64,000 nucleotides of DNA from NCBI RefSeq assembly GCF_053078305.1, contig NZ_CP166879.1. The stretch is one strand, 5' to 3'. Position numbers and translations under genes: made by a program. This document shows, piece by piece, positions 1-35,174 of this stretch. Under the pieces are notes generated by a model. It ran no database searches. It was not told the DNA's origin and saw only the letters and a program-made list of their open reading frames with translations. How positions within the stretch are numbered: position 1 is the first letter of the stretch; each line of letters opens with the position of its first letter.

Positions 1-1
1 A

Positions 2-625
2 TTAATCCAGTTGCGTAATATCAAAAGCGGCGCGGTCGATCACCGCAATGATCTTTTTTATTTGTGCATCAGTGATATCGCTCTGGTTGACGCGTAAATC
101 CAGCACCGCTTTAAAATTATCCAGCGCCCGCTTCATTTGCGGGTTCTGGCGCAGCGCAGCACCAACGCAACGCGCTTTGATGCGTTCTTCAATCATCTCC
201 ACCTGTTCGCGGTTTTCTTCCAGCCACTGCGCGCCTTGTTCGGTCAGCGCAATCTGCTTCTTACCACCTTCCTCTTCGCGGATGGTAATCAGCGACTGCT
301 CCTGCAGAAAATCCAGCGTCGGGTAGATGACGCCCGGGCTTGGGGTGTAATTCCCCTGGGTTAGATTCTCAATCGCTTTAATCAATTCGTAACCGTGGCT
401 GTCATCGCGCGAGAGAATATCCAGAATCACCAGACGCAATTCACCGTGACCAAAGAAACGTTGCCGACGACCGCCGCCGCGACCGTGGCGACCACCGCAA
501 CATTGACCGTGTTCATGCTGGTGACCGTGTCCGCAGTGCTCGTGTTCTGACTTCTCACCTTTGCAGCAGCCCTCATGGCGTGGCTGGCCTTCATGTTTAC
601 AACACCCTTCGTGATGATGGCTCAT
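2..625 (-). CDS. yqjI: PadR-family transcriptional repressor YqjI (His/Cys-rich N-terminus)
   Basis: Complete 207-aa ORF; N-terminal HHHEGCCKHEG...HEH metal-binding-like tract followed by PadR-type winged-helix core; divergent from yqjH as in E. coli. Confidence 0.9.
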   Translation of the reverse strand: MSHHHEGCCKHEGQPRHEGCCKGEKSEHEHCGHGHQHEHGQCCGGRHGRGGGRRQRFFGHGELRLVILDILSRDDSHGYELIKAIENLTQGNYTPSPGVIYPTLDFLQEQSLITIREEEGGKKQIALTEQGAQWLEENREQVEMIEERIKARCVGAALRQNPQMKRALDNFKAVLDLRVNQSDITDAQIKKIIAVIDRAAFDITQLD

Positions 626-645
626 ATCAGCCTCCTTTTGCTTAA

Positions 646-659
646 TTAGATATATCTAA
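646..659. promoter_or_regulatory. Perfect 14-bp palindrome TTAGATATATCTAA, candidate YqjI operator
   Basis: Palindrome read directly; near-copy TTAGATATATCTGA at 876-889 on the other side of the divergent promoter region. Confidence 0.5.
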
Positions 660-725
660 TTTATATCTGATATGAGCGCTCTTGCAAGTGTAAAAATGAT
701 TTTTAAATGTGGACTCATCTCACAC

Positions 726-760
726 GTAGGCCGGATAAGGCGTTCACGCCGCATCCGGCG
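726..760. repeat. REP (repetitive extragenic palindrome) element
   Basis: GCCGGATAAGGCGTTCACGCCGCATCCGGC-type palindromic unit typical of E. coli REP. Confidence 0.7.
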
Positions 761-837
761 TTGAGTAATGATGCCTGAGAAGAGGCGGTTCGTCTTGTCA
801 GACTATAGACATATCAGTTCTACAAATCGCTTGCATT

Positions 838-866
838 TATCATGATTAACAATCATTATCATTTGC
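838..866. promoter_or_regulatory. Fur-box-like site upstream of yqjH
   Basis: TCATGATTAACAATCATTATCATT resembles GATAATGATAATCATTATC consensus; yqjH is known to be iron/Fur regulated. Confidence 0.5.
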
Positions 867-875
867 GAAAATTAT

Positions 876-889
876 TTAGATATATCTGA
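876..889. promoter_or_regulatory. Second copy of palindromic operator (TTAGATATATCTGA)
   Basis: Near-identical to 646-659 palindrome; located just upstream of yqjH start. Confidence 0.45.
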
Positions 890-912
890 TTACCATCACG
901 AAGGCGATAACA

Positions 913-1677
913 ATGAATAACTCCCCCCGCTACCCGCAGCGCGTTCGCAATGATCTGCGCTTCCGTGAACTGACTGTGTTACGCGTTGAGCGCATCAGCG
1001 CCGGTTTTCAGCGCATTGTCCTCGGCGGCGAGGCGCTGGACGGTTTTACATCGCGCGGCTTTGACGATCACAGCAAACTCTTCTTTCCTCAACCTGACGC
1101 TCACTTTGTGCCGCCAACGGTAACGGAAGAGGGCATCGTCTGGCCGGAAGGACCACGCCCACCGTCGCGTGACTATACGCCACTGTATGACGAACTACGC
1201 CATGAACTGGCGATTGATTTCTTTATTCACGAAGACGGCGTCGCCAGTAGCTGGGCAATGCAGGCCCAACCGGGCGATAAACTCACGGTGGCAGGTCCGC
1301 GCGGTTCGCTGGTGGTGCCGGAAGATTACGCGTATCAGCTGTATGTCTGCGATGAATCCGGAATGCCCGCACTGCGCCGCCGCCTGGAAACGTTGAGCAA
1401 ACTTGCCGTTAAACCGCAAGTTAGTGCGCTGGTTAGCGTGCGGGATAACGCCTGTCAGGATTATCTCGCGCACCTTGATGGTTTTAATATCGAATGGCTG
1501 GCACATGATGAGCAGGCGGTAGATGCGCGTCTGGCGCAGATGCAAATCCCTGCCGATGATTACTTCATCTGGATAACCGGCGAAGGTAAAGTCGTTAAGA
1601 ATTTAAGCCGCCGCTTTGAAGCGGAACAGTATGACCCACAGCGGGTACGTGCAGCGGCTTACTGGCACGCAAAGTAA
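913..1677 (+). CDS. yqjH: NADPH-dependent ferric-siderophore reductase (siderophore-interacting protein family)
   Basis: 254-aa ORF, FAD-binding/ferredoxin-reductase-like fold sequence matching E. coli YqjH; followed by hairpin terminator. Confidence 0.9.
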   Translation: MNNSPRYPQRVRNDLRFRELTVLRVERISAGFQRIVLGGEALDGFTSRGFDDHSKLFFPQPDAHFVPPTVTEEGIVWPEGPRPPSRDYTPLYDELRHELAIDFFIHEDGVASSWAMQAQPGDKLTVAGPRGSLVVPEDYAYQLYVCDESGMPALRRRLETLSKLAVKPQVSALVSVRDNACQDYLAHLDGFNIEWLAHDEQAVDARLAQMQIPADDYFIWITGEGKVVKNLSRRFEAEQYDPQRVRAAAYWHAK

Positions 1678-1696
1678 CTGATATATAAAAAGAAAA

Positions 1697-1725
1697 AGGC
1701 TGACGATTTCTCGTCAGCCTTTGCT
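1697..1725 (+). terminator. Rho-independent terminator of yqjH
   Basis: Hairpin AGGCTGACGA-TTTC-TCGTCAGCCT followed by T-rich tract. Confidence 0.6.
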
Positions 1726-1803
1726 ATATCTGGCCCTGCTGTCTTTGAACTGAATGCATATTTTGTTGATAAATAAAGATTATGTGTTTTTGATTTTCGT
1801 TTT

Positions 1804-1827
1804 GTATGCCTTTTTGTATGCCTTTTT
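1804..1827. repeat. Left direct repeat GTATGCCTTTTTGTATGCCTTTTT (putative att)
   Basis: Exact 24-bp copy of 10389-10412. Confidence 0.75.
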
Positions 1828-1985
1828 TGAAAAAGATACCCTTGTTGTTTGATCGTCGATAACGGGTATCAATGTGCACATGCAAATCGATGGCGTTTAT
1901 GTGTGCGCTGTCGAACGTTTGAAAATGGTTTTAGGGCGGTTTTAATGCTGGTTGATGTGGCGCTCTGTGGCGCTCGTTTTGGTGT

Positions 1986-2066
1986 GCTGGTGGCGGGGGT
2001 CGAACCCGCATACATGATCAGCCTGTACAGGCTGGCACCGACTCTACCCGTTGAGCGTACACCAGC
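1986..2066 (-). other. tRNA-like remnant (7-bp acceptor stem GCTGGTG/CACCAGC, canonical T-arm GCGGG-TTCGACC-CCCGC, aberrant anticodon arm, no CCA)
   Basis: Hand-folded from sequence; anticodon region replaced by perfect palindrome CAGCCTGTACAGGCTG. Confidence 0.45.
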
Positions 2067-2090
2067 AAAAAAGCGATGAGGTTGTTGGCT

Positions 2091-2178
2091 GCTGGTGGTG
2101 GGGGTCGAACCCACATAAACATCCCGCTTTCTGGAAGCTATACAAGCGGACGCCGCTTTACCGATTAAGAGTACACCA
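2091..2178 (-). other. Second tRNA-like remnant (T-arm GTGGG-TTCGACC-CCCAC plus CACCAGC 3' acceptor strand; 5' acceptor strand incomplete)
   Basis: Read from sequence; paralogous to 1986-2066 element. Confidence 0.35.
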
Positions 2179-2261
2179 TACAGCCAGGTAAAATAGTAAT
2201 CATGCGTTATGTGCGGGTAAAGTCTGTTTCGTCTGGTAGCACCAGATGAACGGGTATCATT

Positions 2262-2330
2262 ATTTCACCTGATTTCACGTGATTTCGCTTAATTTCACAA
2301 AAATCACCTTCTTTCACCTTCTTTCACAAA
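2262..2330. repeat. Array of six TTTCAC(C) direct repeats (iteron-like, crr-like)
   Basis: TTTCAC at 2264, 2274, 2294, 2313, 2323 plus degenerate copies; resembles P4 type I iteron TGTTCACC. Confidence 0.5.
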
Positions 2331-2461
2331 AAACAAATCATCATTAAAGCGCCTGATTCGCTCTCTGATGCGTTTTGGTGTTTTTGTGGCGTCCGTGATG
2401 CCCTGAAAGGGGATTTTTGCGATAGCGGCGCAAATATAACGGTTGCTGCTGGTATCTGTGG

Positions 2462-2869
2462 TTAGTCTTGCGTGATTTTATTGGCGTGCTTCTTTCTCAG
2501 TCGTCGTATGATGTCGTAAATATGGGTTTCGGATATTGCGTACTCTTTGCGTAATGCCTGCAATTTTTCGCCGTTATCCCACCTGTAGTAAATCTCGTAT
2601 TCGCGCAATGCTGCGAAAAGTGATCTGCCTGTTGGAAGGTAAAGACTTCGCCCACCAGCATAGAAGGCGATTGCAGCGACAACCCGCTTTGCGATTCTGA
2701 AAGCGTCTGCCTCCTCCATGCCATTACGGGTAAGTTCCGCTACTGAATGCGACACGATATCAGCAAGCGAATCACACCATGCATCACCTGGTTTATCTCC
2801 GTTGTCTATGGCGTCGATGAATTTAAGCCGCTCGATGTCTTTTGGTACGTGATGGGTTTGCTCGTTCAT
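2462..2869 (-). CDS. Mor-family-like transcriptional activator
   Basis: 135-aa ORF; C-terminal ...LYLPTGRSL...ISETHIYDIIRR pattern resembles Mor/C-type HTH domain. Confidence 0.55.
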   Translation of the reverse strand: MNEQTHHVPKDIERLKFIDAIDNGDKPGDAWCDSLADIVSHSVAELTRNGMEEADAFRIAKRVVAAIAFYAGGRSLYLPTGRSLFAALREYEIYYRWDNGEKLQALRKEYAISETHIYDIIRRLRKKHANKITQD

Positions 2870-2982
2870 CCGGTAGCCTCTTGCGTTGGTGTATCTGGTC
2901 CTACCAGTTTAATTTAACGTCGCAATAAAACGATATACACGCACACAATCAGAAAAGCCGTCTGACTGTTCCGGTCCCGTGC

Positions 2983-3255
2983 TTACTTCTGGTAGCTACG
3001 CCAGATTTTTTTACATCTCCCTCCTATCCCCATTTCTGCGTAAGTGCGGTTTACTGCTTTCCTCAGGTCTGCGTAGTTCTCCTCTGGCGGCTCCGGTGGC
3101 CTCTGTGCCTTCCCGTAACATTCTGCCCTGCGCATTGCCACCCGTTCGCGTTCCCTGTCAGTCTCCACCAGCATCATCACTTCAGCCCATCGCGCCGCCG
3201 CTCTCCGGTAAAAGCCCTTCGCCTCCAGCTCTTCCGCTATGCTGTCATGTACCAT
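2983..3255 (-). CDS. PerC-family transcriptional regulator-like protein
   Basis: 90-aa ORF with AEELEAKGFYRRAAARWAEVM motif typical of PerC/Pch proteins of prophage-like elements. Confidence 0.6.
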   Translation of the reverse strand: MVHDSIAEELEAKGFYRRAAARWAEVMMLVETDRERERVAMRRAECYGKAQRPPEPPEENYADLRKAVNRTYAEMGIGGRCKKIWRSYQK

Positions 3256-3265
3256 CGTTCACCCC

Positions 3266-3676
3266 TCAGAACGGAATATTGTCACCGTAAGGGTCATCGC
3301 CTCCCACTGGTGGCTGATTACCCTGTGTGCCTGTGGTCCTGCGTCTGTTGCCACCTGGTCGCGCCGTTTTCGCACTGATTACGCTGTCTGCAATGACCTG
3401 ATAACCCTGCCGCGTTTCCCCGTTCTGTCCGGTCCACTGACTGACCTGCATCACACCGGATACGCTGATTACGTTGCCTTTCTCATGTCCTGCCAGTTGG
3501 TCGGCCTGTTTGCCAAATGCCAGGACAGACAGCCATAACGTTGCCTGCCCGTCCTGCGCCTGACTGCATGGCAGCGATACCGCCATACGTGCCAGCGTCA
3601 TCGGTGTGCCCTTACTGGTCTGTTTTGTCTGCGGGTCGTCAATCAGTCGCCCGTAAGCTGCTATCTGCGCTGTCAT
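3266..3676 (-). CDS. Single-stranded DNA-binding protein-like (OB-fold, acidic ...DDPYGDNIPF tail)
   Basis: 136-aa ORF; glycine-rich linker and C-terminal acidic tip ending IPF as in SSB. Confidence 0.55.
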   Translation of the reverse strand: MTAQIAAYGRLIDDPQTKQTSKGTPMTLARMAVSLPCSQAQDGQATLWLSVLAFGKQADQLAGHEKGNVISVSGVMQVSQWTGQNGETRQGYQVIADSVISAKTARPGGNRRRTTGTQGNQPPVGGDDPYGDNIPF

Positions 3677-3777
3677 GATTCCACCTCTCCGGTTTTAACG
3701 TTGATGGTTGTTACCTGTTCCGCTTCTGCAATCTCCCGCTCTGTCAGCGTGGTAAAGTTTGCCGCTGCTGTGCTCAT
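3673..3777 (-). CDS. Small ORF (34 aa, MSTAAANFTTLTEREIAEAEQVTTINVKTGEVES) translationally coupled to ssb-like gene (ATGA overlap)
   Basis: Hand-translated; not in ORF track because below length cutoff. Confidence 0.3.
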   Translation of the reverse strand: MSTAAANFTTLTEREIAEAEQVTTINVKTGEVES

Positions 3778-3915
3778 GAATGCACTTATCAGCCAGGGGG
3801 CTTTCGCGTGTCTTTCTGCCGTGTTGTGGCCCTTCGTTCATGAGCAAAACACTTAAATAAAACTAAAGTGATTTTCTGTGTTTTCGTGCTGCTCTGCTCT
3901 GTGTTTTTTTGCCGT

Positions 3916-4130
3916 TTACTCACCACTACTCACTTTTTTTACTCACTTTTTGGAATCGCTCACTTCGTCTCACCTGAGATTTTTGGTGTTTTTATGTGTG
4001 TGTTTTATAAGTGGTTTTTTACTACTCACTTTTTTGCCTATATACAGGTGAGAAAGTGAGTAATTTTGTTAATTTTTTGTAAAATTACTCACTTTACTCA
4101 CTTTTGCTCCTCACTTTTTTACAGCGGTAC
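3916..4130. repeat. Iteron array: at least 8 copies of ACTCACTTT (one inverted), AT-rich; candidate replication origin
   Basis: Repeats read directly (e.g. TACTCACCACTACTCACTTTTTTTACTCACTTTTT; AAAGTGAGTA inverted copy); immediately 3' of replication helicase gene. Confidence 0.6.
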
Positions 4131-5516
4131 TACGTCATCGCCGTCAATGCGTATAGTCTCGTCTTTCTCCAGTTTTGCTAACCATCGCCGCATGTTTTTC
4201 ACGTCATACCCAAGCCGTTTCATGTCGTCGCGCAACAACGAAATAGTGCACTTGTCGCCGTGCTGTGTGCGTGACCGGATGCAGCCCCATAGCGCGGTAT
4301 GGTTTTCCGTCTTGTTGCCAGCCTCCTCGATGCGCTCCACTTCAACGGGATGACGCGGCTTATCCACCACAACCAGAGACGTGATTAACTCCCCGTCAGC
4401 GTCGGTAAAAAGCTCAACTACCCGCAAATCGTAGGCAGCTTCTTTGAGTTCCTCTGCGTCCTTCATTTTGGTACATGAGATAACCAGCGCTTCGCTTCCT
4501 GCGTCCTCCCTGCGTATCCGGTATTCAGCATCCAGTGATGCACGAAATGCACTGGAACCACGCGCCCCCTTTGTTTCATCCTTGCCGGAATGGTGAACCA
4601 CCAGCACCGTTGCCCCTGTGCGCCGTTTCAGTTCGTCACACCCACGGATAAACGCCCCCATATCACGGGAATCATTTTCATCATTGCCACCAAAGCAACG
4701 CGCCAGCGTATCCAGAATAATCATGCGTACAGGTTTACCCGTTTCCCGTTCCACCTGGCGGGCAGCGATAACCATTTCATCAACATCAAGCGGGGCAGCC
4801 GGAAAGATGGGGCGGTTTACCAGATACAGATTTTTCACCTGCTCACCGTGCACAACCTCCCAGGCTTTTACACGACGCGGAACGCCGATACCGCCTTCAC
4901 CAACCACATAGAGAACAGCGCCATGCGCCACCCTGCGGCCTCCCCACTGGCGGCCCGTGGAAACGTGACACGCCCACGAACCCGCAAGGAACGATTTATA
5001 GGAACCGCTCGCCCCGTATATGCTGCACAGCGATACCGCCGGAATAATCCCCTTAACCACGTAATCCAGTTGCGTGTCATATCCGGCAGAACCAACGCTC
5101 ATCGGTAGCTTTGTTTTGCGCTGGTGGCCTTTTTCTTCCTGCTTTTCCCCGCGCTCCCGTTCCAGATATTCGCGCCAGTTCTCCCGCTTCTGGCTGTGCA
5201 TCCCATCGGGGTAGTAATTCGCATCCTGTACGCCTGCCGCTGCCAGTTTTTGCGCGATGGCATTAATATTTGATGGTCTGATATGGCTTGCTTTGTACAG
5301 CCGGACGCAATAGCGCCCCTCGTCAATGATTTTCGTGTCTGCCAGTTCTGCCAGTTGCTGCTCCCCAAGCCATACAGGTGGCACATTATCGCCAGCAAGT
5401 CGGCCCTCCTGCTCCTGCCACTGCTTCGCGTGTGCCCAGGCATCACTACCCACAAAAATAATGACCTCGGTCATTTTGTCGTAAGGCTGTTTTTTTAAGT
5501 TCGGTGCGCTTTTCAT
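4119..5516 (-). CDS. Replication initiator/helicase (RecA-fold, AAA_25/RepA-like; P4 alpha-like role)
   Basis: 465-aa ORF; Walker A GASGSYKS, Walker B MIILDTLARCF...; C-terminal putative DNA-binding region; adjacent iterons. Confidence 0.8.
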   Translation of the reverse strand: MKSAPNLKKQPYDKMTEVIIFVGSDAWAHAKQWQEQEGRLAGDNVPPVWLGEQQLAELADTKIIDEGRYCVRLYKASHIRPSNINAIAQKLAAAGVQDANYYPDGMHSQKRENWREYLERERGEKQEEKGHQRKTKLPMSVGSAGYDTQLDYVVKGIIPAVSLCSIYGASGSYKSFLAGSWACHVSTGRQWGGRRVAHGAVLYVVGEGGIGVPRRVKAWEVVHGEQVKNLYLVNRPIFPAAPLDVDEMVIAARQVERETGKPVRMIILDTLARCFGGNDENDSRDMGAFIRGCDELKRRTGATVLVVHHSGKDETKGARGSSAFRASLDAEYRIRREDAGSEALVISCTKMKDAEELKEAAYDLRVVELFTDADGELITSLVVVDKPRHPVEVERIEEAGNKTENHTALWGCIRSRTQHGDKCTISLLRDDMKRLGYDVKNMRRWLAKLEKDETIRIDGDDVVPL

Positions 5517-5812
5517 TTCTTACCCCTGAATGCGTTAATCATCTTTTTCATCTTCTGTATTTTTGCCAGTGCCTTTACGTTGCTGGTGGGCACGTTACGC
5601 GGTACCGCCTGCACCAGAGAAAAATCACGGGAAAACTGATAAACAGGCATCACGCAGTCATATTCGTAGCCTTTACGGCGGTAGGTGACGCACCGCCCCG
5701 CCACGCCCTTAATCATTACCGTGCCGCCGTACTGGTCGCGGTAAATATCACCGCGCTTAAATTCAGGGCGAGGCTTGCCGCTGGCAGTTAAGCCAGTTTT
5801 TTTCATGTTCAT
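5513..5812 (-). CDS. Hypothetical small basic protein
   Basis: 99-aa ORF, stop overlaps helicase start (ATGA); no family recognised with confidence. Confidence 0.45.
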   Translation of the reverse strand: MNMKKTGLTASGKPRPEFKRGDIYRDQYGGTVMIKGVAGRCVTYRRKGYEYDCVMPVYQFSRDFSLVQAVPRNVPTSNVKALAKIQKMKKMINAFRGKK

Positions 5813-5885
5813 TTTTTTATCCTTTGTTCTGGTCAGTTACGCCGTTGCTGCATAAATGCGGTTAGCGGTGCCTGTCGTTGCCTTA

Positions 5886-6200
5886 TCACGAATGGCGATA
5901 ATCAGCACTGATATCTCCGTTACGACAACGCCAGTTGTACACCTCCACAACCTCACTGAATCCGGCCACAAGTTCAGCCGTAACAGCGATGGAATCGCCC
6001 AGGCTGCGCAGTTCGTCCATGTCAGGATCAATGCTGTCACTCATGCCAGAAAGTAAGCGCCCTGTGATAGCCAGCCCTTCAAGCAGTTTGCGGGCGTAGA
6101 AATCAGCATCATCAAACATCGCTCTCGCTTCCCGTGCGTCAGCTGCTTTTATGGTTGTAACCAGTTGTTCAAGTATTCTGGTGTTACACACATCACGCAT
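5886..6200 (-). CDS. Hypothetical protein
   Basis: 104-aa ORF in co-oriented gene train; no recognisable motifs. Confidence 0.45.
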   Translation of the reverse strand: MRDVCNTRILEQLVTTIKAADAREARAMFDDADFYARKLLEGLAITGRLLSGMSDSIDPDMDELRSLGDSIAVTAELVAGFSEVVEVYNWRCRNGDISADYRHS

Positions 6201-6363
6201 GACTCACCCCCTCACGAATAAGGGTGACAAAAATCAGATGGGTGTGCGGAAGTTGTGCGCGTGCTTCGTGCTCAGTGGCAGCGGTAACGGTGAATATTGC
6301 AATGCTGCCTGTCAGGCACTGCATAAAGCGCCAGACAAAGTAAGGGCGTGCGGATACAGCCAT
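6193..6363 (-). CDS. Icd-like small protein, copy C (56 aa; MAVSARPYFVWRFMQC...)
   Basis: Internal Met of ORF 6193..6687 preceded by strong SD (AGGAG, ~8-nt spacer); conserved C-terminal block shared by three tandem copies. Confidence 0.5.
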   Translation of the reverse strand: MAVSARPYFVWRFMQCLTGSIAIFTVTAATEHEARAQLPHTHLIFVTLIREGVSHA

Positions 6364-6649
6364 GTGAAAGGCTCCTATGTTTGAGGTAAGGAGTCTCGCT
6401 ACTACGCTGCTAAACATGGTGGCGAGACGTAACAGGGTTAGCAGACTGGCAACATAGAAACCAGCGAGCGCAAAGGCTCCCCCGTTACGCCCCGCCATAA
6501 TGCGGGTATGGGTAGGTTTACGGACACAAAAAAACCGCATATCGGAATGTAAGCGGCTGTCCGCTATGTTATTCAGGCTGCTAAACCCGGTCGCCATGTG
6601 GGTGACTCCGGCATCATACAGCCCGAAAGAAGAGGCGATCAACATGTTT

Positions 6650-6820
6650 TTATCCATGTGATGCCTCCTGACGGATACGGGCGACAAAAATCAGATGTGC
6701 GTGCGGCAGCCGGGCGCGTGCTTCGTGCTCAGTGGCAGCGGTAACGGTGAATACATCGATGTTACTGTGGTGGCACTGCATAAAGCGCCAGACAAAGTAA
6801 GGGCGTGCGAATACAGCCAT
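6650..6820 (-). CDS. Icd-like small protein, copy B (56 aa; MAVFARPYFVWRFMQC...)
   Basis: As copy C; SD AGGAG upstream of internal ATG at 6820. Confidence 0.5.
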   Translation of the reverse strand: MAVFARPYFVWRFMQCHHSNIDVFTVTAATEHEARARLPHAHLIFVARIRQEASHG

Positions 6821-7106
6821 GTGAAAGGCTCCTGTAGTGAAATTAAGGAGTCTCGCTACTACGCTGTCAAACATGGTGGCGAGACGTAACAGGGTTGACA
6901 GACTGGCACTACAGGAACCAGCGAGCGCAAAGGCTCCCCCGTTACGCCCCGCCATAATGCGGGTATGGGTAGGCTTACGGACACAAAAAAACCGCATATC
7001 GGAATGTAAGCGGCTGTCCGCTGTAGTATTCAGGCTGTCAAACCCGGTCGCCATGTGGACGACTCCGGCATCATACAGCCCGAAAGAAGAGGCGATCAAC
7101 ATGTTT

Positions 7107-7295
7107 TTAAGCATGACTCACCCCCTGACGAATACGGGCGGCGAATACAGCGACACAACCGGACGGGCAACGGTTACGCGCTTCGCGTTCCGTCCAGGCG
7201 GTTACGTGGATGATTTGACGTTCTGACGTGCCAAAGGTGATAAAGCGCCAGATAAAGGCGGTTTGAGAATGTACGAGGGCAGGGGTAGTAGCCAT
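7107..7295 (-). CDS. Icd-like small protein, diverged copy A (62 aa; MATTPALVHSQTAFIWRF...)
   Basis: SD AGGAGG upstream of ATG at 7295; C-terminus ...TEREARNRCPSG...ARIRQGVSHA homologous to copies B/C. Confidence 0.45.
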   Translation of the reverse strand: MATTPALVHSQTAFIWRFITFGTSERQIIHVTAWTEREARNRCPSGCVAVFAARIRQGVSHA

Positions 7296-7825
7296 GATGG
7301 CAGCCTCCTTTATCGTTGGGATATACCCACCGCTGGAGGTTCCAATCTCGCTGGCGGTGGACTGCACGGAGTTGGAACTACTGGCGATAAAGGAAACCAG
7401 CCTGACCGAAGTCAGCCCCATACAGCCCACCATTGATAAGGTGTGCGTGTGCGCCGATACAAAAAAAGACGCGTTCGGCGTCTGTATCGCCTTTATCTCC
7501 AGCGGGGTTCCAATCCCGACACCCGTTTTATGAGGTGCGCGGGAATCATAGCCATTTTTGATACTGGCGATCAACTGATTTTCTCTGGCGGGTATTTGGC
7601 GCGGATGCCTGTTACCTGTGGCAATATACACACGACTGTATACAATACACATCGGTTAACTCCTTATATTCCGTTGATGGCCCGTAGTGTTATTGCATTG
7701 CGGGTATTTTTTACCTGCCGTTAATTGAATGCGGCAAGGCATCACGACGGTTAACCCGTTTTGCATAACGTGAGGCGTTTTATTTTCTGCGCTGGTGGCT
7801 TTTATATTTCACATATGGGAATTTA

Positions 7826-8029
7826 TTATTCCTGCTGATAACGCTCCTCTACTTTCTTCTCAAGCCATGATTTCACCTCATCCTCAAACCAGCCAACGCG
7901 GCGTAATCCACGCTTAAAACCAGGAATAAATTCACCAGCCTTAACCATTGTGTCAATGCTCGTTGTACTAAGGCGAAGAAGATTTGCGACTTCTCGTTTT
8001 GTAAGGATTTTCTTTTCTGTAATGTTCAT
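7826..8029 (-). CDS. alpA: AlpA-family phage transcriptional regulator (HTH)
   Basis: 67-aa ORF, LTKREVANLLRLSTTSIDTMVKAGEFIP HTH typical of AlpA/prophage CP4-57 regulator family. Confidence 0.8.
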   Translation of the reverse strand: MNITEKKILTKREVANLLRLSTTSIDTMVKAGEFIPGFKRGLRRVGWFEDEVKSWLEKKVEERYQQE

Positions 8030-8121
8030 ACTTTGCGTTCCTTTTGTTTCAGGCGCTAACTTGCCTAAACTTGTTCAAGGATATGCAAACACGGTAAAAG
8101 CTGGCATTGCGGAATATTACG

Positions 8122-8145
8122 AAAAAAGCCCGTAATATTACGGGC
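8122..8145 (-). terminator. Rho-independent terminator after int-cargo unit
   Basis: Hairpin GCCCGTAATATTACGGGC followed on minus strand by U6. Confidence 0.65.
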
Positions 8146-8166
8146 GGTCATATGTTCAGAAGTCTG

Positions 8167-9063
8167 TCAGTCGTCAACGTCTGCAAGCCACTTACCTATG
8201 CATGTTGGTGTGGCACCGATATCAACGCCTGCTTTGGTTAGTGCGCGGCTTAACTTGCTGTGACCGTTTTCAAGCGCCCTTCGTGGGTTTGACGCCTCTT
8301 CTTCTCCGGCTATAGCGGTGATTAGTCTTTTGATAACTCTGGCCTGAAGATTGGTTGTTTTCTTTGATGGGGGTGGTTTATTGATGTTTAATTCATCCAT
8401 GTTTTCAATAGAAGCGGTACGCCCTCCGTTTATGGCTAAATCTATCTCACTTCTGGAAATAAAAATATCGTTACGTGATATATCCCATCCCTGTAATAAA
8501 ATCGCAGCTTTAAAATCATCCTCGTCATCGTTATCGATTATCTGAATGTATTTAGTATTTGTTGTATCGTGAAATGATAATCTTTCAATGTCTGCGCTGT
8601 TAGCCTTTACATTAAGCAATCCATCAGCTTTAACATATATTTCTTTTGCGGGTGTTATTATTTGTGCGTTTTTTATCTCTGGCTCATCTTCAGCAAAAAT
8701 ATTCATGCTGAAATAATCACCATATGATGAGTAATGATAGTTTATGTTGAGTCCTGCATGTGCATAATAAAAAACATCTATTGGAGTGAGTAGCTTATTT
8801 ATAGATGTGGCATCAATGATTACATTGCAATATTCATTTGTGTAATGCTGGTATAATGTTTTATTAGCACTGATAAGCTCAGGCTTTACCCCTTCATAAT
8901 ACTTTAATGTCAGTTTTTCATTTATATTAATGCGATACAAAAAACGCATCCTCCTCGTAGCGATGAAATGAAGCAAATCATCAACGTCACACTCAAGCCT
9001 TCTGGCTGCCTTGTCTAACGGGTAATAATCCCTTTCAGGAAGGTTTATTTTTTTGTTTGCCAT
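8167..9063 (-). CDS. Hypothetical protein, low-GC cargo (possible N-terminal excisionase-like HTH); function unknown
   Basis: 298-aa ORF 4 bp downstream of integrase stop; markedly AT-rich (about one third GC by eye) versus flanking genes; N/I/D-rich; followed by terminator. Confidence 0.6.
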   Translation of the reverse strand: MANKKINLPERDYYPLDKAARRLECDVDDLLHFIATRRMRFLYRININEKLTLKYYEGVKPELISANKTLYQHYTNEYCNVIIDATSINKLLTPIDVFYYAHAGLNINYHYSSYGDYFSMNIFAEDEPEIKNAQIITPAKEIYVKADGLLNVKANSADIERLSFHDTTNTKYIQIIDNDDEDDFKAAILLQGWDISRNDIFISRSEIDLAINGGRTASIENMDELNINKPPPSKKTTNLQARVIKRLITAIAGEEEASNPRRALENGHSKLSRALTKAGVDIGATPTCIGKWLADVDD

Positions 9064-9067
9064 GCCC

Positions 9068-10348
9068 TTAACCGTTAACCATTTTTAACCCACGATAGCC
9101 ACCCGTGGCGCTTACGCTCCCGCTGGCAGCTGCCTCTACAAAATCCCCCCACCACGCCATTAACGGGCGTCGCTGCTCGAGATAGGTTGAGCGGTTGTAC
9201 GCACGGCGAACCTCGTTTTTATCTATGTGTGACAATGCCGCCTCGATTACGTCAGAGTCAAAACCTTGCTCGTTAAGTGCGGTACTTGCTATTGAGCGCA
9301 AGCCATGAGCAACCAGCCGCCCACTAAAACCCATGCGTTTTATTGCTGCGTTTGCTGTTTGTACGCACATATGGCGCTGCGGGTCGCTGTTGTGTGGAAA
9401 TATAAACTCACGATGCCCGCTTATTGGCTTCATGACGTCCAGAATGGCTAACGCCTGCTTCGAGAGTGGTATTACGTGTTCCCTGCGTTGTTTAAGTCTG
9501 TGCTCTGGTATGCGCCATTCCTTCACCTCAAAATCAATTTCACACCAGCGCGCGCCAGCTGCTTCACCTGGTCGGCAAATTGTCAGTAGCTGCCACTCAA
9601 TGACCAGCCGCGTTTGTCGTTCCACCCGTGCCGTTGCCAGCTTCTGCATAAATTCGGGGAGTTCTTCAGGGCGTATTGCTGGCATGTTCTTAACGCTTGG
9701 CGCGTTAAATGCCTTGCTTATCTCTGATGCCGGATTCGCGGCAATCATTCCGGTATTAACGGCGTAATACATGACCTCATTGATTCGCTGTGCTGTCCTT
9801 CTGACGGTATCTAATTTCCCCTGGGCGGCTAATGGTTTTAATGCTTCGATGAAATTGCTTGCTATCAGGTCTGCTATTGGCCTGTTACCGACTGACGGGA
9901 ATACATTACGCTCCAGCGAACGCCATATATCGCGTAGTGTATCTTCTGCGAGTCCTTGCCCTTTTTTAAGTTCAAACCAGAGCGTAGCTACATGCCTGAA
10001 GGTGTTCTCTCTCTTCATCACTTCACTAAGGCGCTGTTTCTCTCTGTGCTCTTTTGGGTCAATGCCACCAGAAAGAAGCGCTCTGTATTCGTCTTTTATC
10101 TTTCGCGCGCCCGCAATGCTGATTTCTGGATATGCGCCAATGCTTAACATGGCCCGTTTTTTTGTGTGTGGCTTGTAGTAGCGGTAACGCCACAAGCAAG
10201 AGGCGCTTTTGTGCTTAATCACCAGTTCCAGCCCTTCGCCGTCAGTGATGAAAAGGTCCTTTTTTTCGTTGCTGGCTTTTCGCTGGAGGCTTTTTATCGT
10301 TGCGGGTGATAAAGACTTAACTTTTTTGGTCACCGGTTCAACTCCCAT
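9068..10348 (-). CDS. int: Tyrosine site-specific integrase, P4-type
   Basis: 426-aa ORF; catalytic tail ...AHGLRSIASTAL...RAYNRSTY; adjacent to tRNA and att repeat. Confidence 0.9.
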   Translation of the reverse strand: MGVEPVTKKVKSLSPATIKSLQRKASNEKKDLFITDGEGLELVIKHKSASCLWRYRYYKPHTKKRAMLSIGAYPEISIAGARKIKDEYRALLSGGIDPKEHREKQRLSEVMKRENTFRHVATLWFELKKGQGLAEDTLRDIWRSLERNVFPSVGNRPIADLIASNFIEALKPLAAQGKLDTVRRTAQRINEVMYYAVNTGMIAANPASEISKAFNAPSVKNMPAIRPEELPEFMQKLATARVERQTRLVIEWQLLTICRPGEAAGARWCEIDFEVKEWRIPEHRLKQRREHVIPLSKQALAILDVMKPISGHREFIFPHNSDPQRHMCVQTANAAIKRMGFSGRLVAHGLRSIASTALNEQGFDSDVIEAALSHIDKNEVRRAYNRSTYLEQRRPLMAWWGDFVEAAASGSVSATGGYRGLKMVNG

Positions 10349-10388
10349 AAGCTGTTAAAGGCATATGCAAATCTGTGTTTTTTCCGGC

Positions 10389-10412
10389 GTATGCCTTTTT
10401 GTATGCCTTTTT
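10389..10412. repeat. Right direct repeat GTATGCCTTTTTGTATGCCTTTTT (putative att)
   Basis: Exact 24-bp copy of 1804-1827, 41 bp upstream of int start. Confidence 0.75.
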
Positions 10413-10454
10413 AATCTTGCTTATACGCTATCAAACTGGCCCAAACTGAACAAT

Positions 10455-10484
10455 AAAAAACCCGCGTTCCTTGTCTGGCGCGGG
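10455..10484 (-). terminator. Rho-independent terminator of ileX
   Basis: Hairpin CCCGCG...CGCGGG followed by U6 on minus strand, ~50 bp 3' of tRNA. Confidence 0.7.
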
Positions 10485-10531
10485 TTTGCTTTGTTTAACT
10501 TGCCGTAACTTGTCTTTACTTGGTGTCGATT

Positions 10532-10607
10532 TGGTGGCCCCTGCTGGACTTGAACCAGCGACCAAGCGATTATGAGTCGCCTGCTCTAACCACTGAGCTA
10601 AGGGGCC
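10532..10607 (-). tRNA. ileX: tRNA-Ile2 (anticodon CAU, lysidine-modified), 76 nt with encoded CCA
   Basis: Reverse complement reads GGCCCCTTAGCTCAGTGGTTAGAGCAGGCGACTCATAATCGCTTGGTCGCTGGTTCAAGTCCAGCAGGGGCCACCA; cloverleaf and CAT anticodon. Confidence 0.9.
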
Positions 10608-10731
10608 ATGGTAGCGGATTATAAAGTAACTCCGTGTCGCAATCCAGCCATTACCGCGCGCCTGCTGTTTTTATAAACAATGTATTTTCAATCCGTTATA
10701 CTTTTCCTGATGATGTTAGAAAGGAGTAAAT

Positions 10732-11238
10732 ATGGTTGAGGATATTTTGGCTCCAGGGTTACGGGTCGTGTTTTGCGGTATCAACCCTGGGCTTTCATCC
10801 GCCGGGACTGGTTTTCCCTTTGCTCATCCGGCAAATCGCTTCTGGAAGGTGATATATCAGGCCGGGTTTACCGACCGTCAGTTGAAGCCGCAGGAGGCAC
10901 AGCATCTGCTGGATTATCGTTGTGGCGTCACCAAACTGGTAGACCGTCCAACGGTGCAAGCCAATGAAATTTCAAAGCAAGAGCTACACGCAGGTGGGCG
11001 TAAGCTGATTGAAAAAATTGAAGATTATCAGCCGCAAGCGTTGGCGATTCTGGGTAAACAAGCATATGAACAGGGATTCAGCCAGCGCGGTGCACAGTGG
11101 GGGAAACAAACGCTCAGCATTGGTTCGACGCAGATTTGGGTGCTGCCAAATCCCAGTGGTTTAAGTCGCGTTTCACTGGAGAAACTGGTTGAAGCGTATC
11201 GCGAGCTGGACCAGGCGCTGGTGGTGCGTGGGCGATAA
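10732..11238 (+). CDS. mug: G/U mismatch-specific DNA glycosylase
   Basis: 168-aa ORF with GINPGL motif; matches E. coli Mug. Confidence 0.9.
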
Positions 11239-11240
11239 AA

Positions 11241-11263
11241 AACGCCACCGAAAAGGTGGCGTT
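11241..11263. terminator. Bidirectional hairpin between mug and rpoD
   Basis: AACGCCACC-GAAAA-GGTGGCGTT flanked by A-run and T-rich tract. Confidence 0.5.
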
Positions 11264-11280
11264 TGTGCAAAGGGACAGGT

Positions 11281-11313
11281 GCCGGGTGCGGCGTAACGCC
11301 TGATCCGGCCTAC
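11281..11313. repeat. REP-like palindromic element downstream of rpoD
   Basis: GCCGGGTGCGGCGTAACGCCTGATCCGGCCTAC. Confidence 0.5.
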
Positions 11314-11316
11314 CGA

Positions 11317-13158
<1,842 letters not shown>

Positions 13159-13352
13159 AAGACGGTATCCACACTTATTTCATGAGGTTGGTGTTGGGCG
13201 ATTGACCCGATGTCCTTCAGCCGTTAACGCTGAAATCCAACGGTTGTTTACCGCCAACGATAATTACGAGGGCGTACTTATATATTTGCCGCTGCCTCTC
13301 AGTGCGGCTGTCGGGGGCTTCCCGATCGCTCTTCGGCACTTAAGCCGTTAAA

Positions 13353-15098
13353 TCACTTTTTCGCCAGCTCCTGGTTTAATGTCCAGAGCTCCAGGCGTTC
13401 TTCGTTGCTTAAACCATGCGTGCGCTCACGAGCGATTAACTCTTCCTGGCGCAGTTCAAGCAGCGAATCAAACATATGGTTGAGTGAGTCGGTGAAGGTT
13501 TGCTCAGCAATATTCTTATCTGCTATATCGTCCCACATCGACAGTTTTTCAAGGGTGGCAGCATTATTTGTACCACGATAGTGCTCTAAAAGTTGCCCGG
13601 TGGTCAGACCTGGCTGGGAGAGACAAGTGTTGACCAGTTCTCTGAATAAGCCAAGTCCAGGGAGCTTATTTTCATCCAGATTCTCAAGCGGCGGGACCAA
13701 CGTCGCTAATTCTGGATTTTGCACCAGCAACCCTATAAGTATACGCATGGTCGTGCGTTTTAGCTGCGGAACAGGGCGAGAAACGCCGCTCTCTGCCGCT
13801 TTTGGCATTAATCGTTCAAGCTGGCTGTCATCAAGTATGCCTAATTTGTTGCCTAATTCCTGACGAAGATATATTCGCAGCGTTTCGCCCGGCACTTGCG
13901 ATATCAATGGCAGTGCCAGCGTACTCAAACGTGCGCGCCCGTCAGGGGTACTCAGATCAACTTGCGGCATCAGGCTGTTAAACAGAAATGCGGAGAGTGG
14001 CATCGCCTGCTCCATCCGCGCTTCAAACGCTTCTTTACCTTCTTTTCGTACCAGCGTGTCAGGGTCTTCGCCATCAGGCAAAAACATAAAGCGTAGCTGA
14101 CGGCCGTCTGTCATGTAAGGCAGCGCCGTTTCCAGCGCTCGCCATGCGGCATCACGGCCTGCACGGTCGCCGTCATAACAGCAAATGACATTGTTGGTCG
14201 CGCGGAACAACAGTTGTATGTGATCGGCGGTGGTTGACGTACCTAACGACGCAACGGCGTAATTAATGCCGTATTGCGCCAGCGCCACCACGTCCATATA
14301 GCCTTCGACCACAAGCAGACGATTGGGTTCAGCGTTATCCTGCTGCGCTTCATAAAGACCGTAAAGCTGGCGGCCTTTATGGAAAATGTCTGTTTCCGGC
14401 GAGTTCAGGTATTTGGGGGTATCGTTGCCCAGCACACGCCCGCCAAAACCAATCACCCGACCGCGTTTATCGCGAATGGGGAACATCACCCGCTCGCGGA
14501 AACGATCGTAACTGCGCCCCTGATCGTTAGTGACCAACATGCCCGCATCAATCAATGACTGGCGATTTTCTGGATTGCCGCCAAACCTCTTCAGGACGTT
14601 GTCCCAGCCGGGGGGCGCAAAACCAATCGCAAAGCGGGCGATAACCTCGTGGCTTAATCCGCGTTTTTCCAGATACTGGCGCGCAGACGTGGCAACAGGT
14701 TGCTGTAAAGATTGTTGGTAAAACGTATTCAGACCGTCCATCAACTGATAAAGCGTTTGCCGCTGATGGCGCTCGATCTGGCTGGGGCCGCTACCTGCTT
14801 CAAATGGCACTTCAAGATTGTGCATTGCTGCCAGCTCTTCGACCGTTTCGACGAACTCGAGCTTGTCGTAGTTCATCAGGAAGTCGATCGCGTTGCCGTG
14901 CGCGCCACATCCAAAGCAGTGGTAAAACTGTTTCTCACCGTTAACGGTGAAGGACGGGGTTTTCTCGTTGTGGAATGGACAACACGCGTGGAAATTCTTG
15001 CCCTGCTTTTTCAGCTTCACACGGGCATCGATCAGATCGACGATGTCGGTGCGTGCCAGCAGATCATTAATGAATACGCGTGGGATTCGTCCAGCCAT
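13353..15098 (-). CDS. dnaG: DNA primase
   Basis: 581-aa ORF; zinc-ribbon CPFHNEKTPSF, Toprim core. Confidence 0.95.
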   Translation of the reverse strand: MAGRIPRVFINDLLARTDIVDLIDARVKLKKQGKNFHACCPFHNEKTPSFTVNGEKQFYHCFGCGAHGNAIDFLMNYDKLEFVETVEELAAMHNLEVPFEAGSGPSQIERHQRQTLYQLMDGLNTFYQQSLQQPVATSARQYLEKRGLSHEVIARFAIGFAPPGWDNVLKRFGGNPENRQSLIDAGMLVTNDQGRSYDRFRERVMFPIRDKRGRVIGFGGRVLGNDTPKYLNSPETDIFHKGRQLYGLYEAQQDNAEPNRLLVVEGYMDVVALAQYGINYAVASLGTSTTADHIQLLFRATNNVICCYDGDRAGRDAAWRALETALPYMTDGRQLRFMFLPDGEDPDTLVRKEGKEAFEARMEQAMPLSAFLFNSLMPQVDLSTPDGRARLSTLALPLISQVPGETLRIYLRQELGNKLGILDDSQLERLMPKAAESGVSRPVPQLKRTTMRILIGLLVQNPELATLVPPLENLDENKLPGLGLFRELVNTCLSQPGLTTGQLLEHYRGTNNAATLEKLSMWDDIADKNIAEQTFTDSLNHMFDSLLELRQEELIARERTHGLSNEERLELWTLNQELAKK

Positions 15099-22935: not shown

Positions 22936-23065
22936 GCGTAGGCCGAATAAGGCGTTCACGCCGCATCCGGCAATCAACGCCTGATGCGACGCTTGCGCGT
23001 CTTATCAGGCCTACAACTGTCGTTGACGTGTAGCCGGATAAGGCGTTTACGCCGCATCCGGCAAA
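22936..23065. repeat. BIME: cluster of three REP palindromes between uppP and cca
   Basis: TAGGCCGAATAAGGCGTTCACGCCGCATCCGGCA / GCCTGATGCGACGCTTGCGCGTCTTATCAGGC / GTAGCCGGATAAGGCGTTTACGCCGCATCCGGCA. Confidence 0.8.
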
Positions 23066-30886: not shown

Positions 30887-30965
30887 CCGGAAAGCGGTTC
30901 ACAGATCTCGCTTCGTACATGGCAGGCCTATTGACGCTGTTGTTTTTTCAACCTAGAGTAAAGGA

Positions 30966-31108
30966 ACAAGGGTAAGGGAGGATTTCTCCCCCCTCTGATG
31001 AGTTGTTAGTAAGTCGGGAAACTTAACAGTAACAACACAACCAGTATGATGACGAGCTTCATCATAACCCTTTCCTTCTATAAGGCCCCTTCCTCGGGAG
31101 GGGCTTTC
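30966..31108 (+). ncRNA. sibD: Sib-type antisense sRNA (antitoxin of ibsD); coordinates approximate
   Basis: Sigma70-like promoter TTGACG-17-TAGAGT at 30931-30959; transcript covers ibsD antisense; terminator hairpin GGCCCCTTCCTCGGGAGGGGC near 31083-31103. Confidence 0.6.
31006..31065 (-). CDS. ibsD: Type I toxin Ibs, 19 aa (MMKLVIILVVLLLLSFPTY)
   Basis: Hand-translated from reverse complement; hydrophobic 19-mer identical in form to E. coli Ibs toxins; missed by ORF track. Confidence 0.8.
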   Translation of the reverse strand: MMKLVIILVVLLLLSFPTY

Positions 31109-31341
31109 CCGTTTCAGCCCCTTGCTGACTCCCCGATTGTTGATGAGCGCCGGACCCCGCGCAACGCTTTCCCTGAAGCAGTTTTGCCTTCCCCGAGCGG
31201 TCACGCAAAACGCTGCAACGTCCTGAGCATTTGCACCTTTTAGCGGAACGCAGATATAAAAAATCCCCGGCTTTTTGGGCCAGGGATATGCGTTAATGAA
31301 ACCTTCTTGACGCTGATTTTTTTTCAACCTAAAGTAAAGGA

Positions 31342-31483
31342 ACAAGGGTGAGGGAGGATTTCTCCCCCTCTGATTGGCTGTTAATAAGCTGCGAAACTTA
31401 CGAGTAACAACACAATCAGTATGATGACGAGCTTCATCATAACCCTTTCCTTATACAAGGCCCCTTCTTCGGGAGGGGCTTTC
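31342..31483 (+). ncRNA. sibE: Sib-type antisense sRNA, second tandem copy; coordinates approximate
   Basis: Promoter TTGACG-17-TAAAGT at 31307-31335; tandem ~375-bp duplicate of sibD unit. Confidence 0.6.
31381..31440 (-). CDS. ibsE: Type I toxin Ibs, 19 aa (MMKLVIILIVLLLVSFAAY)
   Basis: Hand-translated; second copy in tandem repeat. Confidence 0.8.
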   Translation of the reverse strand: MMKLVIILIVLLLVSFAAY

Positions 31484-34920: not shown

Positions 34921-35174
34921 GCTTATTCTCAGGGCGGGGCGAAATTCCCCACCGGCGGTAAATCAACTCAGTTGAAAGCCCGCGAGCGCTTTGGGTGCGA
35001 ACTCAAAGGACAGCAGATCCGGTGTAATTCCGGGGCCGACGGTTAGAGTCCGGATGGGAGAGAGTAACGATTCTGTCGGGCATGGACCCGCTCACGTTAT
35101 TTTGGCTATATGCCGCCACTCCTAAGACTGCCCTGATTCTGGTAACCATAATTTTAGTGAGGTTTTTTTTTACC
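34921..35174 (+). ncRNA. FMN riboswitch (RFN element) leader of ribB
   Basis: Conserved aptamer AGGGCGGGGCGAAATTCCCCACCGGCGGTAAATCAACTCAGTTGAAAGCCCGCGAGCGCTTTGGGTGCGAACTCAAAGGACAGCAGATCCGGTGTAATTCCGGGGCCGACGGTTAGAGTCCGGATGGGAGAGAGTAACG upstream of ribB. Confidence 0.85.

Follow-up and report, generated by a model that had tools for sequence, protein, structure and literature searches.

Our analyses of a 64,000-nucleotide (nt) stretch of DNA (contig NZ_CP166879.1 of RefSeq assembly GCF_053078305.1, hereafter the window) indicate that positions 7652-6193, on the minus strand, are probably a series of three complete and self-contained RNA immunity modules of the kind represented by CI of phage P4 and c4 of phage P1, set before the replication genes of a satellite and combined with a chain of eta genes that would bypass the locks. 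The host of this array is an island of about 8.5 kb, resembling phage-inducible chromosomal islands (PICIs) and P4-like satellites, in an Escherichia coli chromosome, and the array occupies the interval between the alpA gene of the island and its replication genes. C4/CI antisense immunity is known as a classic single-copy system, and the new element is the stacking of heteroimmune modules: a satellite can harbour several copies in series, each of them complete and orthogonal to the others. Neither tandem heteroimmune C4/CI modules nor a hypervariable recognition code is described in PMC10111431 or in the other literature that could be retrieved.

Anatomy and family membership of the three modules

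The P1 record's own annotation of a1, b1, c4, a2 and b2 served as the key to the module anatomy. The three modules lie head to tail with a direct-repeat period of 457 nt. Units B (7106-6650) and C (6649-6193) measure 457 nt each and are 88% identical in an ungapped comparison, and unit A (7652-7107) is a diverged homologue of both (alignment A1), so that the tandem triplication described in the initial annotation, with two near-identical units and a diverged third, proved real. Every module presents the same order of parts, namely a promoter-like site, a leader with the sites a1 and b1 and a hairpin followed by U7, the C4 RNA, a2, b2 over an AGGAG(G) motif, and an icd/kil-like open reading frame (ORF). 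The anti-target b' is the loop of the second C4 hairpin and a' the single strand 3' of that hairpin; the four target sites (a1, b1, a2, b2) stand at conserved offsets in A, B and C, with a2 located 3-6 nt past the C4 RNA in all modules.

The antisense RNAs all score above the gathering score of 45 of the Rfam C4 family (RF01695), with 77.6 bits for the C4/CI-type RNA of module A (7350-7437), 72.3 bits for that of B (6872-6959) and 73.3 bits for that of C (6415-6502), E-values of 2e-13 to 4e-12 over the whole 64 kb window, and 74.9 bits for P4 CI in the same model; the covariance search that had been proposed was therefore positive three times, at 72-78 bits. Leader A (7462-7538), which is IsrK/seqA-like, gave the sole match above gathering to the Rfam isrK model (RF01394; 63.8 bits against a gathering score of 50), and its match to c4-a1b1 (RF03163; gathering score 46.7) is sub-threshold. 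A sigma-70-like promoter, TTGATC-18-TATGAT, stands at the corresponding place in the three modules (7545-7574, 7070-7099 and 6613-6642 for A, B and C), internal to the long ORF in which each module is embedded; the match to the isrK model begins 7 nt past its end. The predicted terminators, each a hairpin plus U7, lie at 7483-7460 in leader A, as already noticed in the initial annotation, and have counterparts at 7015-6985 in leader B (6985-7063) and 6558-6528 in leader C (6528-6606). The GTCTCGC...GCGAGAC hairpin reported earlier is likewise real in B (6884-6851, z about -2.0) and C (6427-6394, z about -2.2); it encloses a2 and consists of the 3' strand of the C4 closing stem paired with the sequence downstream, around a2.

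The short ORFs were recovered as described, with lengths of 62 amino acids (aa) in A (7295-7107) and 56 aa in B (6820-6650) and C (6363-6193), each preceded by AGGAG(G) and with a common block FxWRF...VTA.TE.EAR...IR. They score 58.9, 54.9 and 44.8 bits with the NCBIfam model NF033153, 'Icd-like' (cut-off 25 bits), for which P1 Icd (52.6 bits) and the Kil part of P4 eta (73.9 bits) provide reference scores, and we assign them a putative Icd/Kil-like function by this family match. Icd A is 46% identical to Icd B and to Icd C, and the icd ORFs of B and C show 32 differences over 171 nt. A search of genome contigs with the Icd alignment returned 34 pattern matches, and tblastn confirmed none of them, the shortness of the protein being the probable reason; the survey of related modules covers the IMG/VR and E. 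coli sets. Judged by sequence, the modules are members of the C4/CI and Icd-like families with the layout of P4 eta/kil, and the earlier suggestion of an RNA-controlled icd-type immunity cassette is borne out by the C4 matches together with the scores of all three short ORFs.

Each module carries its own recognition code

The loop and tail of the C4 RNA are the exact complement of the sites of their own module in all three cases. In module A, the b' loop UUUCCUUUAUCG and the a' tail GUUCCAA, in an RNA with a fold of -41.5 kcal/mol, correspond to a1 TTGGAAC (7513-7507) and b1 GATAAAGG (7497-7490) in the leader and, in the target region at 7345-7304, to a2 TTGGAAC (7345-7339) and b2 CGATAAAGGAGG (7315-7304), the latter over the icd-A Shine-Dalgarno (SD) sequence. 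Module B combines the loop UUCCUGUAGUG with a' CUGUCAA, the a allele of P1 and D6, for a1 TTGACAG (7041-7035), b1 ACTACAG (7027-7021) and, within 6870-6829, a2 TTGACAG (6870-6864) and b2 CACTACAGGAG over the SD (6839-6829). Module C combines the loop UUUCUAUGUUG with a' CUGCUAA, the a allele of P7, for a1 TTAGCAG (6584-6578), b1 AACATAG (6570-6564) and, within 6413-6372, a2 TTAGCAG (6413-6407) and b2 AACATAGGAG over the SD (6381-6372). The module codes can thus be written as the a site and the b2 site of each module.

The longest exact complements of cognate pairs (b'-b2, b'-b1 and a'-a) reach 10, 8 and 7 nt in A, 10, 7 and 7 nt in B, and 7 nt each in C, against 4 nt or less for every non-cognate pair of the 3x3 matrix. 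Cognate b'-b2 duplexes have energies of -19.7, -23.8 and -16.6 kcal/mol (A, B, C) versus -8.8 to -14.8 kcal/mol for non-cognate ones; as an energy matrix computed with stem nucleotides gave noisy values at the a sites and at the targets upstream, counts of exact complements were used in its place. The divergence between the two most similar modules is concentrated in the same places, as the pairing segments (a1, b1, b', a', a2 and b2) account for about 20 of the 23 non-coding differences between B and C (among 286 positions), and the RNA scaffold is otherwise identical. The codes of B and C are distinguished by two a-site and four b-site positions.

The phages P1 and P7 are heteroimmune via differences in c4 and its targets. 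With three distinct C4 codes, each module of the array would in the same manner respond to its own RNA only, and the array is a stack of three different locks, not a single lock amplified. Dosage had been put forward as a reason for the triplication. A rise in the amount of Icd/Kil toxin or of one immunity RNA would fit the presence of three Icd-like ORFs and three promoters. The three C4 RNAs are mutually non-complementary to one another's targets and hence not interchangeable, the Icd proteins have diverged to the extent given above, and pairs of the same specificity are absent from 13 distinct tight tandem arrays (see below); as distinct codes exclude a dosage effect, we regard this explanation as highly improbable.

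The same correspondence holds well beyond the window. Two pattern scans of IMG/VR gave 212 loci, and modules were also searched by iterative nhmmer, a covariance model of our own having been dropped because MAFFT misaligned hairpin 2 of the A-type sequences (alignment A3). All four cognate sites are present in 124 of the 128 matches to the P1-scaffold pattern in IMG/VR; one of these matches, L102 (a' CTGGCAA), lies inside a coding region, fits the pattern by chance and was left out. In the P1-scaffold set there are two forms of a' and no fewer than 20 alleles of b'. Over 65 non-redundant modules, the longest complement of the loop in its own b2 region averages 8.1 nt, against a mean of 4.0 nt in the b2 regions of other alleles, where 0.1% of the comparisons reach 7 nt or more.

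Covariation was assessed on an alignment of 27 specificity types with one sequence per type (alignment A4). The b':b2 and a':a2 pairings are formed in 432 of 432 cells, with a score of 0.689 versus 0.235 in shuffled data (0 of 500 shuffles), and the a1:a' and b1:b' pairings in 378 of 378 cells (0.688 versus 0.189 shuffled), whereas sliding the partners leaves 25-48% of the cells paired (33-48% for b':b2 and a':a2). From the transcript start to the icd ATG, the variable columns are essentially the pairing sites. A few hundred loci yielded 27 types of code on the P1 scaffold and 12 on the A scaffold. With a scaffold that hardly changes and recognition sites that are hypervariable and covary perfectly, the family represents a natural library of orthogonal pairs of RNA repressors and RNA targets, as well as a tractable case of a three-site change of RNA specificity without loss of function. 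The codes may also underlie competition and incompatibility between the many PICI/P4-like satellites that co-inhabit E. coli genomes.

Given b alleles occur with either of the a alleles, CTGTCAA or CTGCTAA (alignment A4; loci L026, L040, L014 and L021 compared with B, C, P1 and P7). Since a and b elements alternate along the module (a1 b1, b' a', a2 b2), reassorting their alleles would take more than one crossover; repeated triple flips and patchy gene conversion are two possible causes.

The long open reading frames are homologues of P4 eta

The initial annotation had taken the long ORFs, which exist as listed with 164, 154 and 181 aa, for probable N-terminal over-extensions through the leaders. 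This view is not sustained by our results: the long ORFs are no artefacts but homologous to P4 eta, and kil forms their nested 3' part. The ORF eta-A (181 aa, 7652-7107) starts at ATG 7652, 7 nt from an AAGGAG SD sequence at 7665-7660, and matches P4 eta in BLASTP with an E-value of 4e-6; its residues 35-129, which match the Pfam family Phage_ASH as P4 eta does (E 1e-22), correspond to the leader-plus-C4 region. The other two are eta-B (154 aa, 7114-6650) and eta-C (6657-6193), which has 154 aa from ATG 6657 and was listed with 164 aa from TTG 6687. All three are in frame with the icd ORF nested at their 3' end, as in the eta/kil arrangement of P4.

The conservation of this frame is a property of satellites. 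In satellite-type modules (Icd of 52-62 aa) the icd frame is open for at least 99 codons upstream in 18 of 22 non-redundant cases, and the other two frames reached 90 codons in none of 23; in 93 P1-like phage modules, with a nearly equal RNA scaffold, the icd frame shuts after a median of 11 codons. A stop/ATG overlap is found at every junction of the array, namely ATGCTTAA between icd-A and eta-B, ATGGATAA between icd-B and eta-C, and ATGCGTGA between icd-C and orf104, the gene that follows. Through these overlaps the three eta ORFs and orf104 would constitute one translationally coupled chain.

The alternative that the long ORFs encode functional Ash/Eta products, and that the RNA signals inside them are incidental, could draw on the Phage_ASH match, the conserved open frame and the strong SD before eta-A. 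Against it, the Phage_ASH match falls on the very stretch of the isrK and C4 RNA elements, P1-like phages retain the RNA and not the frame, and variation is confined to the columns of the RNA pairing sites, where changes are fully compensatory, as expected of RNA-RNA pairing and not of a protein; we therefore attach very little weight to this alternative. The Phage_ASH 'protein' signal may itself largely reflect RNA conservation inside a translated eta frame.

The Phage_ASH alignment spans 7266-7550 (minus strand) in the window and 8330-8704 in P4 (L220), which is exactly the stretch of the isrK-like leader and the C4/CI RNA. At four E. coli RefSeq loci of this kind (L001, L002, L003 and L221), the NCBI annotation pipeline PGAP annotates no non-coding RNA and names the long ORFs 'Icd-like' or 'ash family protein', often as an incomplete pseudogene. 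Annotation practice is corrected in this respect by the present results, as such 'Icd-like' and 'ash family' calls miss the RNA.

Proposed working of the array

The facts on P4 used here were drawn from PMC10111431, PMC4825925 and the P4 sequence. In the P4 model, a constitutive promoter inside eta gives rise to a terminated leader and to CI RNA, and Kil is the truncated product (PMC10111431, section 20); full-length eta is translated only from the upstream late promoter, and its translation prevents termination (PMC10111431). At the IsrK locus, the terminator, the processed downstream RNA and the coupling of orf45 to anrP have been shown experimentally (PMC4825925).

By analogy with these systems we infer the following course of events for the array. 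In the resting island, a constitutive promoter inside each long ORF would produce a leader carrying a1, b1 and the intrinsic terminator, and the transcripts reading through would carry the C4-type RNA, to be excised as a stable small RNA as in P1 and P4. The b' and a' segments of this RNA would pair with a2 and b2 downstream, and, with its SD masked at b2, the start of icd/kil would be blocked. Following the P1/P4 precedent, an untranslated icd/kil would entail the loss of coupling to the next cistron and the termination of transcription, so that the genes behind would stay silent; the genes under the control of the array would be the replication genes at 4119-5812, encoding a DUF4222 protein and a RepA-family helicase. 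Upon induction, transcription would enter from the alpA side and ribosomes would load at the strong SD of eta-A, traverse leader, terminator, C4 and icd, and re-initiate at the stop/ATG overlaps into eta-B, eta-C and orf104. Read-through in the eta frame might in this way override the three locks at once and reach the replication genes.

Several observations weigh against this reading. Leaders B and C are sub-threshold with both leader models (isrK 32.3 and c4-a1b1 29.3 bits for B, 33.3 and 26.7 bits for C), their matches having E-values of 1e-4 or lower in a permissive local search. The leaders fold no better than shuffled sequences (z -0.5 to -1.4), so their folds are not used as evidence, and the promoters, terminators and RNA processing in the array are predictions. 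The gap of 174 nt between alpA and eta-A differs from the overlap seen in P4. Finally, transcripts from the last promoter meet lock C only, so that the upstream locks would add little self-silencing and an advantage of stacking is not obvious, and recombination footprints are clear in arrays, which makes neutral products possible.

Relationship to P4, P1 and lambdoid phages

The closest precedent for the order of the parts is P4. Its 214-aa ORF (8812-8168) begins inside the 3' end of the alpA-like ORF88 and encloses matches to isrK (8692-8615) and to C4/CI (8507-8420); its last part is the Icd-like 65-aa Kil ('MATT...'), the stop of which overlaps the epsilon start by 8 nt. Island and P4 have in common the succession of an alpA-like gene, an eta gene with nested kil that overlaps the following gene by 8 nt, and a replication protein, as well as the promoter internal to eta, the isrK and C4 matches inside eta, the match of eta to Phage_ASH and the Icd-like Kil. 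They differ in that P4 has one module and the island three in series with distinct codes, and in that eta-A does not overlap alpA. The P4 genes sid, psu, delta, epsilon and alpha are also absent from the island (family scans having covered the span from orf298 to the helicase, and the other proteins being named by position and by the sister locus L001), which has instead a RepA-type helicase, DUF4222, SSB, PerC and Mor. It accordingly falls outside the P4-like satellites as defined in SatelliteFinder (psu, delta, sid, alpha, epsilon, alpA, int) and better fits the layout of AlpA-type Gram-negative PICIs (int, alpA, then replication genes), a group in which matches to the Rfam C4 and isrK models are on record (PMC10111431).

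The immI region of P1 and P7 (c4, icd, ant) presents the same layout of a1, b1, C4, a2, b2 over the SD, and icd, with an icd stop that overlaps the next start. Modules B and C are 77-81% identical at the DNA level to the c4 region of P1, P7 and D6, B having the a allele of P1 and C that of P7. The island, on the other hand, lacks the ant gene and the C1 operator, its Icd has 56 aa versus 73 aa in the phage, the icd frame is open over about 100 codons upstream and closed in P1-like phages, and its b alleles are unlike all P1-like ones sampled. The IsrK-orf45-anrP locus of Salmonella Gifsy-1 is similar in its leader small RNA, which ends at an intrinsic terminator (Rfam isrK), in the processed downstream RNA STnc1160, equivalent to C4, and in the translational coupling of a small ORF to the next gene (PMC4825925); it differs as a single module of a lambdoid prophage in control of an antirepressor, compared with three modules of a satellite placed before replication genes. 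Module A finally resembles the C4-type module in the Rha-family regulator gene of Stx-converting phages such as P13374, with 83% identity over 277 nt, the same scaffold and the same downstream 'MAT..' start, but the ORF downstream is a Rha-type regulator of 214-215 aa in the phages and an Icd of 62 aa in the island.

These resemblances bear on another reason suggested early on for the triplication, helper-phage interference. In such a case one or more C4 RNAs would be aimed at the matching lock of a helper or competing phage, either a P1-like immI or the Rha/antirepressor lock of Stx and lambdoid phages. The identity of B and C to the P1/P7/D6 region and of A to a module inside a Rha-type gene would agree with it, as would the fact that some A-type specificities of other satellites are identical to those of lambdoid-phage modules. 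The codes themselves argue otherwise. In the sample, and for the window, modules of the satellite class and of the P1-like class have no specificity in common; 2.9 million IMG/VR contigs contain no exact match to the code of A or of C and two to that of B, both followed by a short (57 aa) satellite-type Icd-like ORF, and the P13374 module has different a and b sequences (a TTGCTAC, b CAATCAAGG). Helper interference is consequently an improbable explanation of the array.

The A-type codes with b' TTCCCTTGATTG and a' TGTGAGAAC or AGTCCTAAC occur both in lambdoid/Stx modules with a Rha-type ORF of 214-215 aa and in satellite modules with an Icd of 62 aa (L003, L037 and IMG/VR). RNA cross-talk between satellites and phages that have such A-type codes in common is possible.

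Frequency and mosaic origin of the array

Tandem arrays are a minority. They occur at about 5% of the IMG/VR loci, where nine loci have two modules about 475-479 nt apart and one has three, and among 5426 complete E. coli genomes an icd-to-leader junction of the array type is present in at least 29. Other E. coli islands have two to four Icd-like coding sequences, and the usual array starts with an A-type (Stx-phage-like) module, behind which stand one or two of the P1 type. The exact A-B-C array was not found among the 5426 E. coli genomes, seven of which have A-B only. The specificity is different at every position in all 13 distinct tight tandem arrays. Locus L216, considered as an array with a repeated code, lies in a P1-like context, its two identical modules are separated by 1566 nt, and it is not a tight array. 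The only IMG/VR triple (L050, 1093-1874) has spacings of 341 and 357 nt and downstream ORFs of 313, 201 and 82 aa, and thus a different architecture.

The array has a mosaic ancestry. In alpA and in module A it has 100% identity to L001, and the closest relative of module C (96.3%) and orf104 (99.7%) is a sister island at another chromosomal site in strain JNEC-KY203. The single P1-type module of L001 corresponds to B up to mid-icd and then to a partly C-like variant (about five differences from C in the last ~66 nt). This ancestry implies that modules are gained and lost by homologous recombination. Between module C (6649-6193) and the JNEC-KY203 module (L221, 4001-4457), 17 of 457 positions differ, about 11 of them in the b1, b' and b2 region, and the icd ORFs are identical at 170 of 171 nt; this is a coordinated code switch (AACATAG to ACCAAAG) on a near-identical background.

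Two explanations of why three modules stand in series appear to us about equally tenable, neither of them having an even chance of being correct. The array may be a selectively neutral by-product of homologous recombination between co-resident or tandemly integrated satellites, in which every module works and having three confers nothing. The mosaic of L001-like alpA and A with JNEC-KY203-like C and orf104 speaks for this explanation, the lone P1-type module of L001 is a B/C-like chimera, and arrays are infrequent, both in IMG/VR and in E. coli. Less readily accommodated are the absence of any repeated specificity from the 13 distinct tight arrays, in which all modules are intact in every part, and the retention of the chain of stop/ATG-overlapping ORFs at each junction.

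Stacking might alternatively be adaptive, the extra upstream C4 RNAs, made constitutively, silencing incoming rival satellites that use a matching lock. As lock C alone gates the last promoter, the upstream modules would mainly add trans-acting C4 species, and this is the basis of the adaptive explanation. The island's own replication genes would then be gated only by the last lock and by helper-triggered eta read-through, so that the range of exclusion would widen without added vulnerability. A corollary is that, with the element kept silent by its other locks, one lock would be free to acquire a new code by drift, which would explain specificity switches on near-identical backgrounds and the large number of codes. 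If there is a selective reason for stacking, the one we prefer would be this broader exclusion of rival satellites.

The island and its chromosomal setting

The flank of the island (rpoD-dnaG-mug) is that of E. coli with 99.8% identity, and the insertion point adjoins a tRNA gene with a CAT anticodon (10607-10532, minus strand) beside mug, which marks the island edge. The genes follow on the minus strand in the order tRNA(CAT), integrase (10348-9068), a 298-aa ORF, an AlpA-like excisionase/regulator (8029-7826), the array, orf104 (6200-5886), the DUF4222 protein (5812-5513), the RepA-family helicase (5516-4119), SSB, a PerC-like and a Mor-like protein, and a tRNA-like remnant. Family scans covered the island proteins from orf298 to the helicase; the integrase, SSB, PerC and Mor were named from their position in the ORF list and the annotation of L001. 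The AlpA-like protein, upstream of the array and at the position of P4 ORF88, was identified by phrog_66 and the L001 annotation, and matches the excisionase-domain model TIGR01764 weakly (18.6 bits, below the curated cut-off of 28.8). The DUF4222 protein (phrog_285) and the helicase (phrog_2850/906) have the PGAP names given in L001. As the first gene behind the three locks, orf104 has the position of P4 epsilon; it had no match in NCBIfam, PHROGs or Pfam, and its candidacy as an epsilon homologue was rejected, as it shows no similarity to epsilon and no family match.

A weak tRNA-like match (35 bits) lies at the far end of the island, at 1985-2066 on the minus strand. ARAGORN, run over 1-14000, reports 10532-10607 as the sole tRNA and nothing at 1985-2066, and in the equivalent region of L001 PGAP annotates 'tRNA-OTHER' and a tRNA-Tyr; the element could be a duplicate of the att site or an island-borne tRNA-like element. 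The plus strand of the 174-nt gap between alpA and eta-A has terminator-like hairpins at 7680-7705 and 7757-7777, and a weak, sub-threshold isrL-like match (19 bits) extends over 7637-7711 of the plus strand. Elsewhere in the window, two SIB antitoxin RNAs (30931-31080 and 31307-31455), an FMN riboswitch (34921-35069) and a naRNA4 element (22941-23011) are ordinary chromosomal features, unrelated to the island.

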